From Ignavibacteriales bacterium (GTDB lineage: Bacteria; Bacteroidota; Ignavibacteria; UBA10030; UBA6906): 20,411 bases of DNA. The DNA is taken from NCBI GenBank assembly GCA_037441705.1, contig JBBIRR010000059.1, positions 1-20,411 of the forward strand, written 5' to 3'. Below the pieces are notes generated by a model. That model ran no database searches and was not told the origin of the DNA. It saw only the letters and a list, made by a program, of their open reading frames with translations. This document shows, one piece after another, positions 136 to 5,633 of the stretch; position 1 is the first letter of the stretch, and each line of letters starts with the position of its first letter. The position numbers and the translations under genes were made by a program.

Positions 136-420
136 TCACCAGCTCTCCGCCAGATCATGCCAGTCAGGATTGGCTGATTCGATGAGCGCGAGCTTCTTCA
201 CACGCAGCCAGCCCTTGATTTGCTTCTCTCGTGTGATTGCTTGGCGCGCATCGCTGAACTCCTCGAAGTAAACGAGCTTGTCGAGACCATATTTGGCAGT
301 AAAGCCTGGCAAAAGTTTGTGCTTGTGTTCGTAGACGCGACGCACCAAATCATTAGTAATTCCAACGTACAGCGTCCCATTACGCTTGTTGGTCATGATG
401 TAGACGAAGAACTGTTTCAT
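136..420 (-). CDS. Small stand-alone GIY-YIG nuclease (UPF0213/YhbQ-like)
   Basis: 94 aa with FVYIM...TLYVGITNDLVRRVYEH...AITREKQIKGWLR...ESANPDW. The VY/YVG motifs and the catalytic-type Arg, His and Glu are all present. Confidence 0.92.
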   Translation of the reverse strand: MKQFFVYIMTNKRNGTLYVGITNDLVRRVYEHKHKLLPGFTAKYGLDKLVYFEEFSDARQAITREKQIKGWLRVKKLALIESANPDWHDLAESW

Positions 421-489: not shown

Positions 490-511
490 GAGTTCTCAAC
501 GCACAAGCGGT

Positions 512-553
512 CTGTCATGCTGAGCCCTGCTTCCCAAGGGCGAAGCATCCAGA
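512..553 (+). repeat. YGTC-tagged palindromic repeat, type A, copy 3
   Basis: Identical to 69-110. Confidence 0.9.
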
Positions 554-572
554 ACCGAGTACCTGCAAAGCC

Positions 573-630
573 CGGTTCTGGACTCTTCGCGGAGTTTACC
601 CTGAGGCAAGCCGAAGGGCTCAGAGTGACA
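573..630 (-). repeat. Inverted partner repeat, type B, with nested hairpin
   Basis: Minus strand reads tgtc-ACTCT-GA-GC...GC-GA-AGAGT-ccagaaccg. It contains CCCT-GA-GGC-aa-GCC-GA-AGGG (599-618) on the + strand. tccagaaccg (548-557) pairs with cggttctgga (573-582). Confidence 0.85.
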
Positions 631-650
631 ATTTCCTTACACACAAGCGT

Positions 651-688
651 CTGTCATGCTGAGCTGTGCTTTCCAGCAGCGAAGCATC
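651..688 (+). repeat. YGTC-tagged palindromic repeat, type A, copy 4
   Basis: ctgtc-ATGCT-GA-GCTGT-gctttcca-GCAGC-GA-AGCAT-c. Its end overlaps the stop codon (687-689) of the metal-binding protein gene. Confidence 0.88.
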
Positions 689-1562
689 ACTTCAACGCCG
701 CCGCCAGCGTCGCAATGTTGTAGTCCATCAAACTGATGTAGTCCTTCGCCTGGTCCACCCCGCCGACGGACGTCGCCAGCCGCACGATCTTCACCTCCGT
801 TGCGCGGGCAATCTGTTCCGGCGCACTCGTGTCGTAAAACGGCTCCACGACGATAGCCTTGATGCCCCCATCCCGCACCTTTCGAATCAACTGCGCCGTG
901 TGACTCGGACTCGGCTGGATGCCCGGCTTCGGCTCCACCTGATCCACAACGTCGAGTCCGAGCCAGTTGGCAAAGTACGTCCAGCTGCGATGAAATGTAA
1001 TGAGTTTGCTCCCACGGAACGGCTTCATTGTCGCCTCCCACTCCGCTATCTTCGCGTCGAGCTTCTTGAGATAGCGCTCGGCGTTTGCGCGGAACAGCTG
1101 CTCATCTGCCGGCGACACCCTGGTCAGCGACGCGACGATCTCATCCAGAATCACCCGGACATTCCTCGGATCGAGCCAGTAGTGTGGGTTGCCGTACCTG
1201 TGCACGTCGCCCTGACTCGCATCCACCTTCGTCGGCACTTCCATCTTCTCAATGGGTCGGGACAGATCCACCACCACCAGCCGATCGTTCCGTGAACCGT
1301 CAATGATCTGCTGCGCCCACAGTTCCAATTCCAATCCGATCATCAAAAAAACATCAGCTGACTTCAGCTTCAGCATGTAGCTCGGCTTCACATCAACGAA
1401 ATGGGGATTCTGATTCCCTCGCACAATAAAGTCCACCTGAACTTTCTCGCCGCCGATCTGCTTCGTCAGGTCGGCAAGATCGGGGAGTGTTGTTACGACT
1501 TTTACATCGGCATGCGATGCGACGGCGAAGAGTGGTAGGAGAAGAAGAAACGGAACTCTCAT
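687..1562 (-). CDS. Metal ABC transporter substrate-binding protein (ZnuA/TroA, cluster A-I; Zn/Mn-type)
   Basis: Signal peptide, then KVVTT, QNPHFVDVKPS, GDVHRYGNPHYWLDP, ITFHRSWTYF, EPKPGIQPSPSH and IVVEP. AGAGG SD upstream. Confidence 0.92.
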   Translation of the reverse strand: MRVPFLLLLPLFAVASHADVKVVTTLPDLADLTKQIGGEKVQVDFIVRGNQNPHFVDVKPSYMLKLKSADVFLMIGLELELWAQQIIDGSRNDRLVVVDLSRPIEKMEVPTKVDASQGDVHRYGNPHYWLDPRNVRVILDEIVASLTRVSPADEQLFRANAERYLKKLDAKIAEWEATMKPFRGSKLITFHRSWTYFANWLGLDVVDQVEPKPGIQPSPSHTAQLIRKVRDGGIKAIVVEPFYDTSAPEQIARATEVKIVRLATSVGGVDQAKDYISLMDYNIATLAAALK

Positions 1563-1610
1563 GGTCTAACCTCTGCGTTGATTCACAAGTGTAGATTCGA
1601 GATTCATCAG

Positions 1611-2741
1611 TCAGAACGGATGAGCTTTATGCGGCCCGAGCGAGAACAGCACCTGCACGCCGATACTGTTGACCGACTGCGCACCGCCGGGCGCTTCCGA
1701 TCGTGTGTTCTGATACTGCACGCGCAGACCGAGTGTCTCTTCGACGGGATAGTATCCGAAGAAGATCGCTACGGCCCGCGCGTTATCATCGCCGCTGTAG
1801 GGCGATTGGCTCCAATCGAACCGGGCACCGATGCTGTACGTCTTGAGAAACTGATAGTCGGCGTAGAGATACAAACCCGCGCTGGTGATACGTCGTGTGT
1901 GCGGGTTGCCGTTCTCGTCGAGAAACGGATTGAAGTCCCGGTCCTGTGCTGCCGTTCGTCGGTTGAAGAGAACCTCGCCCTGCACCGTCAACGACGTGTA
2001 CATGTCGGGCTTGTACTTGTACTTGAAATCCACATTCCAATACCAGAAGCGCTGGCGATGGTACGGGTCGTGGATGCCGGTGTAGAAACTGACGCCGGTC
2101 TCGAGATCGGAATACTCGCCGACGGGAAAGAAGCCCATCAGCCTGCCTGCAGCGGCATAGGTCGGTTTCGCGCCCGTCGTGTCTTCGATGCCCGTCGCCT
2201 CGCCGATAGGAATGCCGCGCAGCAGATCGAGCGTGAGCTTGCTGTACACATCGCCTGTGGGCAGCAGCGTGCTGAGCGAGATGCCGAGATCGTTCAGACC
2301 TTCTTCACCCAAAAATCGCTGAGCCGATAGCGGTTGGGTGATGAAGGGCCATTGATGCGGGTGCATCATGTTGAGCTTGCCGAAGTCCACGCGGTACTTG
2401 CCGAGCCGGACGTTCAAGTCGAGCGGCAGGCCGCGCAGCACGCTGACGTACAGTTCCTCCAACCCCAACTTTCCCTCTTCGACGTCGGGACCGGGAAGTG
2501 TGAGGACAACGTCGGCGCGGGCAAACGGGTTCAGGTACGCGGCGACCACCATTTCGAGTTCCTGAAATTGGAAGTCAGGACGAGCAAACTCGCGGATACC
2601 TTCGCCGAGGCGTTCGCCGTCATTGGTCTCGATGAGAAAGCGCGGAATGACGCTGATGTCGGGATTGATGGTTGTTTGTGCGTTGCCGGCTCCCGACACA
2701 AGCGCGAGCAACGCCAGCAGAATGCACGTTCTGCACGGCAT
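1611..2741 (-). CDS. Outer-membrane beta-barrel (porin-like), probable metal-uptake channel
   Basis: Signal peptide, INPDISVI, FGKLNMMHPHQWPF, alternating aromatic beta-strands and a C-terminal His motif LGPHKAHPF. Strong AGGAGG SD. Lies directly upstream of the ZnuA-like gene. Confidence 0.75.
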   Translation of the reverse strand: MPCRTCILLALLALVSGAGNAQTTINPDISVIPRFLIETNDGERLGEGIREFARPDFQFQELEMVVAAYLNPFARADVVLTLPGPDVEEGKLGLEELYVSVLRGLPLDLNVRLGKYRVDFGKLNMMHPHQWPFITQPLSAQRFLGEEGLNDLGISLSTLLPTGDVYSKLTLDLLRGIPIGEATGIEDTTGAKPTYAAAGRLMGFFPVGEYSDLETGVSFYTGIHDPYHRQRFWYWNVDFKYKYKPDMYTSLTVQGEVLFNRRTAAQDRDFNPFLDENGNPHTRRITSAGLYLYADYQFLKTYSIGARFDWSQSPYSGDDNARAVAIFFGYYPVEETLGLRVQYQNTRSEAPGGAQSVNSIGVQVLFSLGPHKAHPF

Positions 2742-2745
2742 GGAA

Positions 2746-2809
2746 TCCTCCTGACAAAAATTATGCGTGAAATGAAATAGACGCGTTGGAGTGCTATGCG
2801 CAGGGAGGA
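2746..2809 (-). promoter_or_regulatory. Putative anti-SD/SD hairpin sequestering the ribosome-binding site of the beta-barrel gene
   Basis: In the mRNA, UCCUCC(CUG) lies within the Gly-Pro-Pro codons of the leader (2809-2801) and is complementary to the SD CAGGAGGA (2753-2746). Confidence 0.6.
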
Positions 2810-3141
2810 CCGCGCTTGCCGGAGGAAATGACGTCAGGTTCGGAAGTGGATGAACACGGCGTGAGTTGCAGCGTGTGGCTCACGTCCGTCGGATCGGTGC
2901 CCACGACGTGCCCCGTGCCGACCGCAATCCGTTGGACGAAGGGTGAACAGGCAAGACAATGCCGCGCCTGGTCGGCCGGAATGTGTTTCTCGTGAGCGCC
3001 GCAGTCATGCGTTGCAACGACGGGCAGCGATTCCAGCAACAGGCTTGCCGCATCGTGGTGCGCAAGCTCAAGCAAGCCGCTGCCGAGAAGATACCCGATC
3101 AGCACCGCAACAACACGACTATGTCGCAAGAACGATGTCAT
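2794..3141 (-). CDS. His/Cys-rich leader protein with N-terminal membrane segment, CxxC and C-terminal RGPP (DUF2946/CutF/CruR-like)
   Basis: 115 aa: hydrophobic VVAVLIGYLLGSGLL, then AHHD, HDCGAHEKH, RHCLAC, ending KRGPPCA*. First gene of the metal-uptake unit. Confidence 0.75.
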   Translation of the reverse strand: MTSFLRHSRVVAVLIGYLLGSGLLELAHHDAASLLLESLPVVATHDCGAHEKHIPADQARHCLACSPFVQRIAVGTGHVVGTDPTDVSHTLQLTPCSSTSEPDVISSGKRGPPCA

Positions 3142-3150
3142 CGTGGGTAC

Positions 3151-3179
3151 AATATACGCGGAGCGGCGCGGAGATACAA
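3151..3179 (-). promoter_or_regulatory. Sigma70-type promoter of the leader/metal-uptake operon
   Basis: TTGTAT-N17-TATATT, 9 nt upstream of the ATG at 3141. No SD, so the transcript would be nearly leaderless. Confidence 0.6.
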
Positions 3180-3220
3180 GCAGGCGCTGTTCGCGCGCGG
3201 GGTTTCGACGGAAGTGGCGG

Positions 3221-3304
3221 GAATTCAGGGTTCGCGGTTCGGAGTTTGAGGTTTAGGGTTCAAGATTCAGGGTTCAGGATGCAAGATGCAAGATGCAGGA
3301 TGCA
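3221..3304. repeat. Degenerate heptamer tandem repeat, 12 units
   Basis: gaattca gggttcg cggttcg gagtttg aggttta gggttca agattca gggttca ggatgca agatgca agatgca ggatgca. Confidence 0.85.
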
Positions 3305-3321
3305 CGGATCGGAACAGAATT

Positions 3322-3356
3322 AGGTCGCCCCGATGGGGCTTGTGCGATGTCTTTGC
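3322..3356 (+). repeat. Dispersed REP-like hairpin (GCCCC-gat-GGGGC)
   Basis: aggtcgccccgatggggcttgtgcgatgtctttgc matches 6227-6261 at 33/35. Confidence 0.85.
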
Positions 3357-3515
3357 CGCACGAGAATAACCAATTTGATGATGAGAGGAAAGCCCTTCTG
3401 CTTGCATCGAACTTGTCCTGTCACGAATCCGCGCGCTCTCTACCATCATTCTCCAAAAATTCCTTCATTATGTCTGTTGTATTCCCTGCTTGAGTGTTGC
3501 ACAACCGAGGACAAC

Positions 3516-5633
3516 ATGTACCGGCTTATGATGATAACCGCATTACTCTTTGCCCGGCTCGATCAGGCGTCTGCTCAGGAACAGCCGACACCGCAGCCCC
3601 CCAAGGCGAAAATTCAGATGACGCGCCTCGTAAAACATGGCCACGAACGCCGCGATTACTACTACTGGCTCCGCGAGCGTGATAATCCGGAAGTGATCGA
3701 GTACCTCAAGGCGGAGAATGCTTACACCGACGCCGTGATGGCGCCGTACAAGAATCTCGAAGAGAAACTCTACGCCGAGATGCTGGCGCGCATCAAACAA
3801 TCGGACCTTTCCGTTCCTTACAAACTCGATGACTACTACTATTACACACGCTACGAAGAAGGCAAGGAATATCCCATCTACTGCCGGCGACGGGGTTCGA
3901 TGGAAGCGCCCGAAGAGGTGATGATTGATGGGAATGCAATGGCGCGCGGACACGCCTACTTCGCAGTCGGAAGCACCGCCATCAGCTTCGGGCAGGATAT
4001 TCTTGCCTTTGCGGTTGACACCGTCGGACGGCGACTGTACACGATTCGCTTCAAGAATCTGACGACGGGTGAAATGCTTTCCGATGAAATTCGTTCCTCC
4101 ACGGCCAACATTGCATGGGCGAACGACAACCGCACGCTGTTCTACACGAAGCAAGATCCGACCACGCTGCGCCCGTTCCAGATCTATCGTCACACGCTCG
4201 GCACCGATCCTGCGCGTGATGTGCTTGTCTATGAAGAAAAGGACGAAACCTTCTCGTGTCACGTTTTTCGGACGAAGTCCAAGCAGTTCCTCATGATTGC
4301 TTCCACGCAAACGCTCAGCTCGGAGTATCGCTTCCTCGACGCAAACACGCCGGAAGGCGAGTTCAAAGTGTTTTTGCCGCGCGAACGCAACCACGAGTAT
4401 GCGGTTGACCATTTTGAAAATTACTTCTACATCCGGTCGAACGATCGCGCGAAAAATTTCCGTCTGATGCGCACACCCGTCGGCGATACGCGCAAGACCG
4501 CCTGGCGGAACGTCATTCTGCACCGCAAGAATGTGCTGCTGGAAGATTTCGAAATCTTTCGTGACTTCCTCGTGTTGACCGAACGAAAGAACGGCCTGCG
4601 TCAGCTTCGCGTTCTGCCGTGGATCGGTTCCGGCGAGCATTACATTGCGTTCGATGAACCGACCTACACCGTGGCGCTGGATGTGAACCCGGACTTCAAC
4701 ACGCGGCTCGTGCGCTTTCGCTATCAGTCGCTCGTGACACCCAACTCCGTGTACGACTACGACATGGCGGGCAAAACCCGGAAACTGCTGAAGCAGGATG
4801 AGGTGCTGGGCGGTTACGATCCGTCGCAGTATGAATCCGAGCGGCGGTACGCTCGCGCACAGGACGGCACGCTCGTTCCCATCTCGATGGTGTACAAGAA
4901 GGGAATGAAGAAGGATGGAACGAATCCGCTGCTGCTGTACGGGTACGGCTCGTACGGCATCAGCACGGACGCGACGTTTGCATCGTCGCGGTTGAGTTTG
5001 CTCGATCGCGGCTTCATTTACGCCATCGCGCACGTACGCGGCGGGCAGGAGTTGGGGCGTGATTGGTATGAGGATGGAAAACTCCTGAAGAAGAAGAACA
5101 CCTTCACCGATTTCATCGCGTGCGCAAGGTATCTGATCGACGAAAAGTACACCAATCCCGATAAGCTGTTTGCCATCGGCGGCAGCGCGGGCGGGCTGCT
5201 GATGGGCGCGGTGGTGAACATGGCGCCGCAGTGGTTCAAGGGCGTCGTAGCGCTTGTCCCGTTCGTCGATGTGGTGACCACGATGTTGGATGAGAGCATT
5301 CCGCTGACGACCGCCGAATACGATGAATGGGGAAACCCCAACGAGAAGAAGTACTACGACTACATGCTCTCCTACTCGCCCTATGACAACGTCGAAGCAA
5401 AGGCGTATCCCAACATGCTGGTGATGGCGGGCTTGCACGACTCGCAAGTCCAGTACTGGGAGCCGGCAAAGTGGGTGGCGAAGCTCCGCGCGATGAAAAC
5501 GGACAACAACCAGCTGCTGCTGAAGACCAACATGGAGGCGGGTCACAGCGGCGCCTCCGGCCGGTTCCGCAGGCTGCGCGAGACGGCTTTCCAGTATACG
5601 TTTCTGCTGCGGCTTGCCGGCATCACCGCATGA
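3516..5633 (+). CDS. ptrB: Oligopeptidase B (protease II, S9A)
   Basis: DYYYWLRER, LYGYGSYG, AHVRGGQELG, nucleophile motif GGSAGG, EYDEWGNP, HDSQVQYWEPAKWVAKLR and AGHSG. Start set at ATG 3516 (GAGGA SD, followed by a signal peptide) rather than 3333. Confidence 0.95.
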   Translation: MYRLMMITALLFARLDQASAQEQPTPQPPKAKIQMTRLVKHGHERRDYYYWLRERDNPEVIEYLKAENAYTDAVMAPYKNLEEKLYAEMLARIKQSDLSVPYKLDDYYYYTRYEEGKEYPIYCRRRGSMEAPEEVMIDGNAMARGHAYFAVGSTAISFGQDILAFAVDTVGRRLYTIRFKNLTTGEMLSDEIRSSTANIAWANDNRTLFYTKQDPTTLRPFQIYRHTLGTDPARDVLVYEEKDETFSCHVFRTKSKQFLMIASTQTLSSEYRFLDANTPEGEFKVFLPRERNHEYAVDHFENYFYIRSNDRAKNFRLMRTPVGDTRKTAWRNVILHRKNVLLEDFEIFRDFLVLTERKNGLRQLRVLPWIGSGEHYIAFDEPTYTVALDVNPDFNTRLVRFRYQSLVTPNSVYDYDMAGKTRKLLKQDEVLGGYDPSQYESERRYARAQDGTLVPISMVYKKGMKKDGTNPLLLYGYGSYGISTDATFASSRLSLLDRGFIYAIAHVRGGQELGRDWYEDGKLLKKKNTFTDFIACARYLIDEKYTNPDKLFAIGGSAGGLLMGAVVNMAPQWFKGVVALVPFVDVVTTMLDESIPLTTAEYDEWGNPNEKKYYDYMLSYSPYDNVEAKAYPNMLVMAGLHDSQVQYWEPAKWVAKLRAMKTDNNQLLLKTNMEAGHSGASGRFRRLRETAFQYTFLLRLAGITA

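Follow-up and report, generated by a model that had tools for sequence, protein, structure and literature searches.

The locus considered here raises the question of what a small open reading frame (ORF) is doing at the head of a group of genes that looks like a metal-import operon. It lies in a stretch of 20,411 nucleotides from an Ignavibacteriales bacterium (contig JBBIRR010000059.1 of assembly GCA_037441705.1; hereafter the window), in which the ORF, encoding 115 amino acids, is followed on the same strand by genes for an outer-membrane beta-barrel and a periplasmic metal-binding protein of the ZnuA family. A previous, sequence-only reading of this DNA had taken the ORF for a metal-sensing ribosome-arrest leader, pointing to a membrane segment, clusters of histidines, the motif HCLAC and the terminal residues KRGPPCA, and all of these are indeed found in the sequence. 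On the comparative evidence presented below, we consider it reasonably probable that the leader is an arrest peptide of the RAPP/RGPP class, DUF2946-like in kind, which would control a porin-ZnuA(-ZnuC-ZnuB) import operon post-transcriptionally. The elements concerned, all on the minus strand, are as follows.

3174-3179, minus strand: -35-like hexamer TTGTAT, from the sequence
3151-3156, minus strand: -10-like hexamer TATATT, ending 9 nt before the leader ATG
2794-3141, minus strand: leader ORF (P0001), 115 amino acids and a TAG stop codon
3061-3114, minus strand: hydrophobic segment, residues 10-27, with R6 and R9 before it and acidic residues after it, from the sequence and an AlphaFold2 helix
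2947-3060, minus strand: His/Cys cluster, residues 28-65, a candidate metal site with H28, H45-x-C47-G, E51, H53 and C62-x-x-C65, from conservation
2815-2946, minus strand: ruler, residues 66-109, variable in sequence and constant in length
2803-2814, minus strand: arrest-type motif R110-G-P-P113 (CGC GGT CCT CCC), followed by C, A and the stop codon
2821-2826, minus strand: first UCCUCC resembling an anti-Shine-Dalgarno (anti-SD) sequence, in the codons of Ser106-Ser107, extending through GGCAA (2820-2816), which pairs with UUGUC
2804-2809, minus strand: second anti-SD-like UCCUCC, within the Gly-Pro-Pro codons, the candidate of the sequence-only reading
2742-2793, minus strand: spacer of 52 nt from the leader stop to the barrel start, pyrimidine-rich, with 8% G outside the SD
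2746-2751, minus strand: SD of the barrel gene, GGAGGA, from the sequence
1611-2741, minus strand: porin-fold outer-membrane beta-barrel (P0002), 376 amino acids, with a signal peptide and a C-terminal Phe
687-1562, minus strand: periplasmic metal-binding protein of the ZnuA family (cluster A-I; P0003), 291 amino acids, assigned by Pfam

Judged by comparison among relatives, the leader is a real, conserved gene under selection. Scans of Pfam and NCBIfam gave no match for the leader protein. A word-indexed protein search returned six relatives, among which HCLACSP and GKRGPP are invariant, and a seven-sequence alignment used as a query for related loci found seven loci. When 41 genomes (the window's own and 40 relatives) were searched in six frames, a leader ORF without an internal stop was present in 26 of them, and in 21 of the 24 belonging to the same taxonomic family. 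The set of 26 loci used throughout comprises the window and 25 fetched loci, an additional weak hit in G021, with a TGA in it, having been omitted; this set shows no variation at H28, C62, C65, R110, P112 and P113, and conservation of at least 90% at M1, H45 and C47. A profile built from the 26 sequences and run against 1.84 billion cluster representatives found 310 proteins at E<=0.001, of which 153 also pass E<=1e-10; almost all are about 115 amino acids long and have alignments reaching the extreme C-terminus. In the larger set of 149 sequences, made up of the window protein and the 148 best of the 310 library hits, the positions conserved at 90% or more are H28, H45, C47, E51, H53, C62 and C65. 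A phylum-wide sample contained the leader ORF in 29 of 301 genomes, mostly in the window's order and rarely elsewhere, and within the order its presence by family was 7/7, 11/14, 4/7, 1/1 and 1/2. Close relatives of the leader come from Ignavibacteria, Chlorobi and metagenome-assembled genomes labelled 'Bacteroidota', and the nearest leader clusters in the protein atlas carry the label 'hypothetical protein', with Acidobacteriota the most frequent among them.

The protein carries histidines at positions 7, 28, 29, 45, 50, 53 and 61, the last of which opens the HCLAC of residues 61-65, and it ends in SGKRGPPCA followed by TAG. AlphaFold2 predicts a helix over residues 3-28, with a predicted local distance difference test score (pLDDT) of 85-95, and a short helix over residues 66-72. 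From the positive-inside rule, we infer that the first of these is a signal-anchor with the N-terminus in and the C-terminus out. Beyond the membrane helix the model contains no folded domain, which speaks against the proposed sensor; a leader that stays unstructured until metal is bound would fit such a model, which is compatible with this idea and no proof of it.

The evidence that carries the argument lies in the C-terminal half. A motif of the form R[GASR]PP is found 2-6 residues before the stop codon in all 26 loci, and exactly 2 residues before it in 14. It reads RGPP in 23 loci and RAPP, RSPP and RRPP in one locus each, with none lacking it, so that the conservation of RGPP/RAPP in orthologous loci, which the sequence-only reading had put forward as a check, is borne out by 23 and 1 of the 26, respectively. 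Among the 149 sequences RGPP occurs in 133, RAPP in 12, RRPP in one and RSPP in none, which gives RGPP or RAPP in 145; of the three without the motif, two look truncated and one has a longer tail. The C-terminal xKRGPP is the most conserved block of the leader, and it stands at a nearly constant distance from the CxxC pair. Counted from the second Cys of the CxxC pair up to the Arg of the arrest motif, this distance is 44 residues in 18 loci, 43 in five, 45 in two and 42 in one, and for the 146 motif-bearing library sequences it is 44 in 94, 43 in 38, 45 in 10 and 42 in one, with no CxxC in range in three. Column entropy is highest in between, with 2.86 bits over residues 66-105 as against 2.01 bits in the His/Cys part and 1.10 bits in the last eight residues before the tail, and the same residues 66-105 are nearly gap-free (8 gapped cells in 26x40). 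Since the sequence is free and the length fixed over about 40 residues, this stretch resembles a spacer or ruler.

The motif can also be set against the rest of the window genome. Its open frames of at least 200 amino acids (1.84 million residues) contain five RGPP and 14 RAPP, compared with nine AGPP and 38 AAPP, and of the ten frames of at least 60 amino acids that end in R[GA]PP followed by no more than 10 residues, only the leader has both a hydrophobic segment and a CxxC. According to published work, no arrest cores are more robust than RAPP and RGPP; they withstand EF-P, are kept out of proteomes and are enriched near the C-termini of small secretory or membrane proteins encoded upstream of metal-homeostasis and sec genes, and RGPP is functionally equated with RAPP in the same paper (PMC12992588). 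A small ORF of fewer than 300 amino acids, of membrane or secretory type, that carries RGPP near its C-terminus and lies on the same strand upstream of a barrel gene fits this description of arrest peptides. Altogether, the comparative evidence that the leader is of the arrest type and regulatory appears strong.

Whether the leader is also of the DUF2946 type, as the sequence-only reading had proposed, receives a divided answer. CruR (Bp2923) of Bordetella pertussis is a DUF2946 protein in which CXXC and RAPP are 45 residues apart, a distance that varies by ±1-2 across more than 2000 homologues, and the addition of five residues impairs regulation (PMC9426467). Like the window leader, CruR is the first ORF of a metal-uptake operon beginning with an outer-membrane transporter, and it combines an N-terminal export signal, a CxxC, an R-x-P-P motif 2-3 residues before the stop codon and a spacing of about 45 residues (44 in our leader). 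The leader shows the CXXC, the spacing of 45±1-2 and the position as first gene of a metal-homeostasis operon that mark DUF2946 leaders. Its C-terminal motif has the right position, 2-6 residues from the stop, but reads RGPP in 23/26 and RAPP in only 1/26 loci, and the hydrophobic residues 10-27, with R6 and R9 before them and the AlphaFold2 helix 3-28, may form an export signal. Several results weigh against the assignment. The Pfam model of DUF2946 (PF11162, gathering score 23.7 bits) matched neither the window protein nor its six closest relatives even at E<=10, and when the model was run over the whole window genome the window was not hit. When the leader profile was compared with a profile of four DUF2946-like RAPP proteins of the same phylum, the probability came to 6.5%, although the alignment of four sequences was poor and, being so small, left homology neither proven nor excluded. 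Weak PF11162 hits elsewhere in the window genome (L038-L040, n=3) fall on ORFs that are not leader-like and were discarded. On the other side, no weak Pfam hit is more frequent in the 149 family sequences than PF11162 (13/149, best E=9.4e-4), a relative from the same order (L049) scores 23.8 bits with PF11162 and E=7.5e-14 with the leader-family model, and one atlas cluster neighbouring the leader consists to 12% of DUF2946 members. In view of these weak hits, the L049 protein and the atlas cluster, and of the architecture and ruler that both families have in common, we regard the leader family as a peripheral offshoot of the DUF2946 type which, for the window protein, lies beyond the reach of the Pfam model and short of formal membership. 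What stands of the earlier claim is the CxxC and the C-terminal RGPP, to which the 44-residue spacing can be added, whereas the hidden Markov model search versus DUF2946 that it had put forward as a check gave no match with PF11162.

The genes that follow the leader bear on what it may control. For the barrel, an AlphaFold2 model with 22 orthologues in the input reached a mean pLDDT of 80.7, and its best Foldseek matches were DcaP (6eus), OmpT, OprP (2o4v), chitoporin and Omp32, each with a probability of 1.00, Pfam offering a weak BBP2 match only. The fold is that of a porin and the barrel has no plug domain, and the label of non-TonB barrel attached to it earlier is therefore right. H127 and H129 of the barrel motif N-x-x-H-P-H are invariant across the 22 orthologues, as is H371 of the C-terminal G-P-H-K-A-H-P-F, in which H374 is conserved in at least 90%; the invariant histidines may be metal-binding residues of a metal-selective channel. 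The next ORF begins 48 nt beyond that of the barrel, and its product matches Pfam ZnuA (PF01297) at E=2.6e-63, which confirms the family membership of the ZnuA-like gene already noticed in the sequence. In NCBIfam AztC is the nearest model, with 147 bits against a cut-off of 350, ahead of MntC and of ZnuA (75 of 268 bits), and as no equivalog cut-off is reached, the metal can be inferred only. Its nearest solved structures are 5kzj, 5w56 and Synechocystis ZnuA (2ov1), and the His, His, His and Asp residues in NPH, NPHYW, FHRSW and YDT align with His, His, His and Asp of 5kzj, which we take to be the metal ligands. On that assumption, the cargo of the operon looks Zn-type.

Gene order is well conserved, with the barrel gene next after the leader in 24 of the 26 loci and a ZnuA gene next after the barrel in 22, the two barrel loci without ZnuA being interrupted by contig ends. 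An ABC_tran ATPase and an ABC-3 permease (ZnuC/ZnuB) follow ZnuA, as checked with Pfam in L013 and by eye in other relatives. In the remaining two loci (L023 and L037) a TonB-dependent receptor lies downstream instead, and the same arrangement, with CarboxypepD_reg, Plug and barrel domains, was observed in the distant members L045 and L047. One leader family would thus serve two unrelated kinds of outer-membrane transporter, and the neighbourhood with TonB-dependent receptors matches the published, classic context of DUF2946. A second class of barrel, 26-34% identical to that of the window and carrying an N-terminal extension, was seen in L016, L018, L019, L022, L025, L029, L033, L034 and L036. 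In L029 and L034, whose barrels have 438-442 amino acids, this extension is rich in Gln or resembles a coiled coil, and in the loci of this class the permease gene comes directly after ZnuA. The window genome does have an orthologue of the ATPase gene znuC, 82% identical, at the end of another contig (G000:C71:7897-8664). Past the end of znuA (687) and as far as the edge of the contig, the first 700 nt of the window contain four copies of a 45-nt repeat (5-49, 69-113, 512-556 and 651-695), two copies of a 51-nt repeat and the following ORF.

136-420, minus strand: GIY-YIG ORF, 94 amino acids (Pfam E=3.1e-17)

In relatives znuC and znuB come immediately after znuA; here, with znuC on another contig and repeats behind znuA, either an insertion has entered the operon or the assembly was broken at the repeats.

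As to how the leader is expressed, the promoter proposed for it on the letters alone, with TTGTAT (3179-3174), a spacer of 17 nt, TATATT (3156-3151) and 9 nt to the leader ATG, is confirmed in the sequence. In 18/26 loci a TATATT with no more than one mismatch stops 6-9 nt short of the leader start, and in 16/26 a TTG is found 16-18 nt upstream of the -10 element, the call being based on this conservation because a generic sigma-70 consensus scan of 500-3500 flagged no promoter. Given the distance from the -10 element to the ATG, the leader mRNA is probably leaderless or nearly so; an SD-like 4-mer precedes the leader start in just 1/26 loci. No AT-rich palindrome that could serve as a Zur box was seen in 3142-3230, judged by eye only. 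Just upstream of the promoter there are degenerate 7-nt tandem repeats (3223-3304; periods 7, 14 and 21; units including GGTTCAG and GATGCAA), which sit within a gap of about 375 nt between the leader and the divergent gene on its other side.

3333-5633, plus strand: S9 prolyl oligopeptidase, divergent (Peptidase_S9_N E=2e-108, Peptidase_S9 E=2e-71)

The start of the longest ORF of this peptidase seems too far upstream, as the signal-peptide-like sequence MYRLMMITALLFARLDQASA starts at residue 62.

A further claim made from the sequence was that the arrest codons themselves are the anti-SD of the barrel gene. The letters are as described, TCCTCC (2809-2804) lying within the codons GGT CCT CCC (2811-2803) and the SD GGAGGA (2751-2746) standing 4 nt before the next ATG (2741), itself 52 nt past the leader stop. 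The claim overlooked a second TCCTCC (2826-2821), however. The fold of 2720-2840 has an energy of -33.1 kcal/mol and a z-score of -2.42, with 3/200 shuffles folding as well, and in both its minimum-free-energy and its centroid form GGAGGA pairs with the UCCUCC of the Ser-Ser codons, 12 nt upstream of the Gly-Pro-Pro copy, which forms the loop of a small hairpin. In this predicted fold GGAGGA is masked, but the partner is the Ser-Ser copy and not the Gly-Pro-Pro codons. CCUCC is present within the Pro-Pro codons in 15/26 loci, and the claim holds for only some of the family. In minimum-free-energy folds of the loci the partner of the SD falls inside the Pro codons in L013, L019, L020, L027, L032 and L035, just past the stop codon in L015, L017, L024 and L026, and overall at positions between -18 and +29 nt relative to the Arg codon, so that conservation of the anti-SD at a fixed position in orthologous loci is not borne out.

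A clear SD precedes the barrel in 23/26 loci, and in these 23 (L016, L025 and L036, with no clear SD, being omitted) the probability that it is paired was computed. As this measure saturates and discriminates poorly, the ranking of duplexes and the cost of opening the ribosome-binding site (RBS) were used instead. A 45-nt stall zone, which takes in the Pro-Pro codons and the first bases of the pyrimidine-rich spacer, forms the most stable duplex with the RBS among about 31 overlapping leader windows in 12/26 loci and is among the top two in 13, with a mean of -13.5 compared with -10.1 kcal/mol, a clear enrichment. With a stalled ribosome represented by a 31-nt block around the P-site Pro codon, the mean cost of opening the RBS over the 26 loci decreases from 9.9 to 8.0 kcal/mol, a modelled unmasking of 1.9 kcal/mol on average (11.8 to 8.3 in the window), and the drop is at least 2 kcal/mol in 11/26 loci and at least 4 in 4/26. 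With a control block placed 40 nt upstream the cost stays at 9.9, and a drop of at least 2 is seen in 2/26. In these models, the unmasking effect of a stalled ribosome would be real but modest. The first Pro codon is CCU in 15 loci, CCG in four, CCA in four and CCC in three, and in long frames of the window genome CCU accounts for 12.9% of Pro codons and for 19.7% of those that come first in a Pro-Pro pair.

Against control through the SD it has to be said that the position of the pairing partner is unconserved and that three of the 26 loci have no clear SD at all. The mean pairing probability of 0.93 compares with 0.81 in dinucleotide shuffles of the upstream part, and it is still 0.81 under the constraint of a stalled ribosome; for the window, 9% of shuffles attain the observed value. 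In 15/26 loci opening becomes cheaper by less than 2 kcal/mol, and structure worth about 8 kcal/mol remains. Selection for CCUCC would account for the enrichment of CCU, but selection of a rare codon could do so equally well, and because the 26 loci are related to each other, p-values overstate the support. A fair reading of the two sides is that an RBS-masking element overlapping the footprint of the stall is likely, that it does not consist specifically of the arrest codons, and that it may not be the whole mechanism.

The course of events that we propose would then be the following. Transcription would start at the leader ATG, or within about 3 nt of it, from the TTG-N17-TATATT promoter, and the N-terminal helix would bring the nascent chain to the membrane with its N-terminus in and its C-terminus out. 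CruR is arrested with both Pro codons of its motif in the P and A sites (PMC12992588); with Pro112 and Pro113 placed likewise, RGPP would halt elongation two codons before the stop, and this would be the default state. The stalled ribosome would cover both UCCUCC copies and the GGCAA that are otherwise paired with the barrel GGAGGA, and it might also keep Rho off the G-poor spacer; either way, the transporter genes would be expressed. When metal is plentiful, it would be bound by H45-x-C47 and C62-x-x-C65, kept at a constant distance of 44 residues from RGPP, and the resulting compaction would pull on the chain and release the arrest, whereupon the ribosome would terminate, the RBS would be masked again and uptake would be shut off. 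What the comparison shows is that the ORF, its motifs, the ruler, the gene order and the promoter are conserved and that complements of the RBS are enriched at the stall site; that the ribosome stalls, that metal releases it, which metal acts, where it is sensed and how much the SD and Rho each contribute belong to the proposal. The polarity, with the stall as the on state, was chosen because the operon encodes an importer and because CruR, the uptake-linked precedent, has the same polarity. The export signal of CruR is dispensable for regulation (PMC9426467), which weighs against the scheme in that sensing in the periplasm is not assured.

The most serious competing explanation keeps the arrest leader and changes its output, which would be Rho-dependent termination of the CruR type in the spacer or early barrel gene, Rho being blocked while the ribosome is stalled and acting after its release. 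We hold it to be less likely, yet well worth keeping in mind. In CruR, copper relieves the arrest and termination by Rho follows before the gene of a TonB-dependent transporter, and this is the control published for the only DUF2946 leader heading an uptake gene (PMC9426467). The window genome encodes Rho, no intrinsic terminator-like site was found in the 52-nt spacer, and the modelled unmasking of the SD is small. Moreover, the short spacers are C/U-rich and poor in G, with 8% in the window, 0-15% where the spacer is 45 nt or shorter and 0% in L014. However, loci with longer spacers are not G-poor, the complements of the RBS cluster at the stall site, and the spacer, only 52 nt long here, measures 46-57 nt in roughly half of the loci, whereas DUF2946 operons have been described as having long intergenic distances (PMC9426467). 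Unmasking of the SD and control by Rho are compatible with each other, and in view of the G-poor short spacers, the Rho gene and the lack of an intrinsic terminator a CruR-like Rho component may act alongside the masking.

The opposite polarity, in which metal would induce the stall and activate the operon, seems improbable to us. CutF, which is likewise a DUF2946 protein, works in this way, stalling when bound to copper, and the stall is proposed to melt a stem-loop that shields the next RBS (bioRxiv 10.1101/2025.02.05.636593). CutF of Rhodobacter capsulatus (see also PMC8456105) also resembles the window leader in having an exported nascent chain, a Cys/His metal site and a Pro-rich C-terminal arrest motif, but it controls a detoxifying multicopper oxidase and is induced by copper, whereas our leader heads importers, for which the opposite polarity would be expected. 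Induction of an importer set by the very metal it transports would defeat homeostasis, and published work ascribes to RGPP an intrinsic robustness as an arrest core (PMC12992588). Equally hard to sustain is the view that the leader is a stable, membrane-anchored periplasmic metal-binding accessory, such as a chaperone or transporter subunit, in which RGPP and the pyrimidine tracts are incidental, for although its conserved His and Cys residues and membrane helix would suit a metallochaperone and it is always co-located with transport genes, its most conserved block xKRGPP contains a motif that proteomes avoid (PMC12992588 and our own genome count), its 40 residues of free sequence and fixed length fit a ruler rather than a folded domain, AlphaFold2 shows no domain, and the family heads two unrelated kinds of outer-membrane transporter.

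With respect to the metal, the arrest reading that we prefer leads to a further proposal. On account of the cargo genes and of a residue set of the Cys3/His type, the signal is probably Zn(II). CxxC is the classic Cu(I) motif, however, so that the metal could be copper, a point against zinc that also lends some support to a metal-induced stall of the CutF type, whose signal might be copper or another thiophilic metal. The window genome, 100% complete by marker genes in 92 contigs, has no obvious Zur as far as a search with models of the Fur family can tell: the only Fur-family gene found (G000:C31:52007-52447 = L056:1008-1448) scores 87 bits with Fur, 77 with PerR and 46 with Zur, all below the cut-offs. 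This lone gene encodes a run HHHH and two CxxC pairs. It is conceivable, though we put it forward tentatively and as more doubtful than not, that the leader is the first zinc-responsive arrest sensor, in which an H-x-C...C-x-x-C knuckle would fold on Zn(II) 44 residues from RGPP, pull the chain free and shut off a dedicated zinc porin and ZnuABC, replacing Zur in this lineage. Engineered force sensors that join a zinc finger to SecM would be the artificial counterpart of such a zinc sensor.

Placed beside the known systems, the principle as such is not new, being known from DUF2946, CruR and CutF and from the survey of RAPP/RGPP upstream ORFs (uORFs) in front of metal genes. The leader shares with CruR the expected logic of a stall that means on and is released by metal, as far as our proposal goes. 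It differs in having RGPP instead of RAPP, in lacking a Pfam DUF2946 match and in its additional H28 and H45-x-C47; in heading a porin-fold barrel and a ZnuA-type ATP-binding cassette (ABC) importer instead of a TonB-dependent transporter and PepSY; in a spacer of 52 nt with a strong SD and anti-SD-like tracts instead of a long, Rho-dependent one; and in a host from the Ignavibacteria-type Bacteroidota and a probably leaderless start, CruR having a proteobacterial host. ApcA, ApdA, ApdP and the Streptomyces lividans set that includes SLIV_16130 are, like the leader, small secretory or membrane proteins with RAPP or RGPP near the C-terminus, encoded upstream of their presumed target genes, and some arrest peptides of this class likewise have conserved Cys and His residues and lie upstream of metal genes (PMC12992588, PMC10987492). 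The metal-related classes named in the available parts of these papers are TonB-dependent receptors, YcnI, PCu(A)C and PepSY, and a ZnuA-type importer is not named in those parts. The SecM-secA pair of Escherichia coli offers a more distant parallel, in which C-terminal arrest of an exported leader exposes the next RBS and a pulling force releases it, but SecM senses secretion activity, its arrest sequence ends in RAGP and it is not homologous (bioRxiv 10.1101/2025.02.05.636593).

Links to zinc are not absent from the earlier data. A Caulobacter DUF2946 gene heading czrCBA appears in a table of the Zur regulon (PMC4176598), and links to porins and to zinc exist as unannotated rows in the prior RAPP/RGPP survey data. 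A literature search turned up no paper on an arrest peptide that also deals with zinc and ZnuA, and among the papers listed for CruR with RAPP and zinc none was relevant; the RGPP uORF table of PMC12992588 lay outside that search, and the leader family may already be listed there. What appears new in our comparison is a family branch that Pfam leaves unnamed for the window protein, with its dominant RGPP core, its extra H-x-C, its lineage and its leaderless start, and, as a target, a porin-fold channel with a ZnuA-type ABC importer, which would point to Zn over Cu.

To our knowledge, the metal-sensing arrest leaders established by experiment respond to copper only, CruR and CutF being the two cases, and the targets named in the wider RAPP/RGPP survey are related to copper and to TonB. 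If our reading is true, the principle of the arrest leader would be carried to a zinc-type ABC importer and a porin-fold outer-membrane channel, and it would be extended to a non-proteobacterial lineage, namely the Ignavibacteria-type Bacteroidota and, by the atlas listing, probably the Acidobacteriota. A 44-residue ruler held in common with DUF2946, in spite of a divergence that has gone past detection by Pfam, would make the spacing a testable mechanistic constant. For the uncharacterised family of 310 cluster representatives, the combination of a leaderless start, a membrane helix, HxC...CxxC, 44 residues and RGPP would provide an annotation signature.

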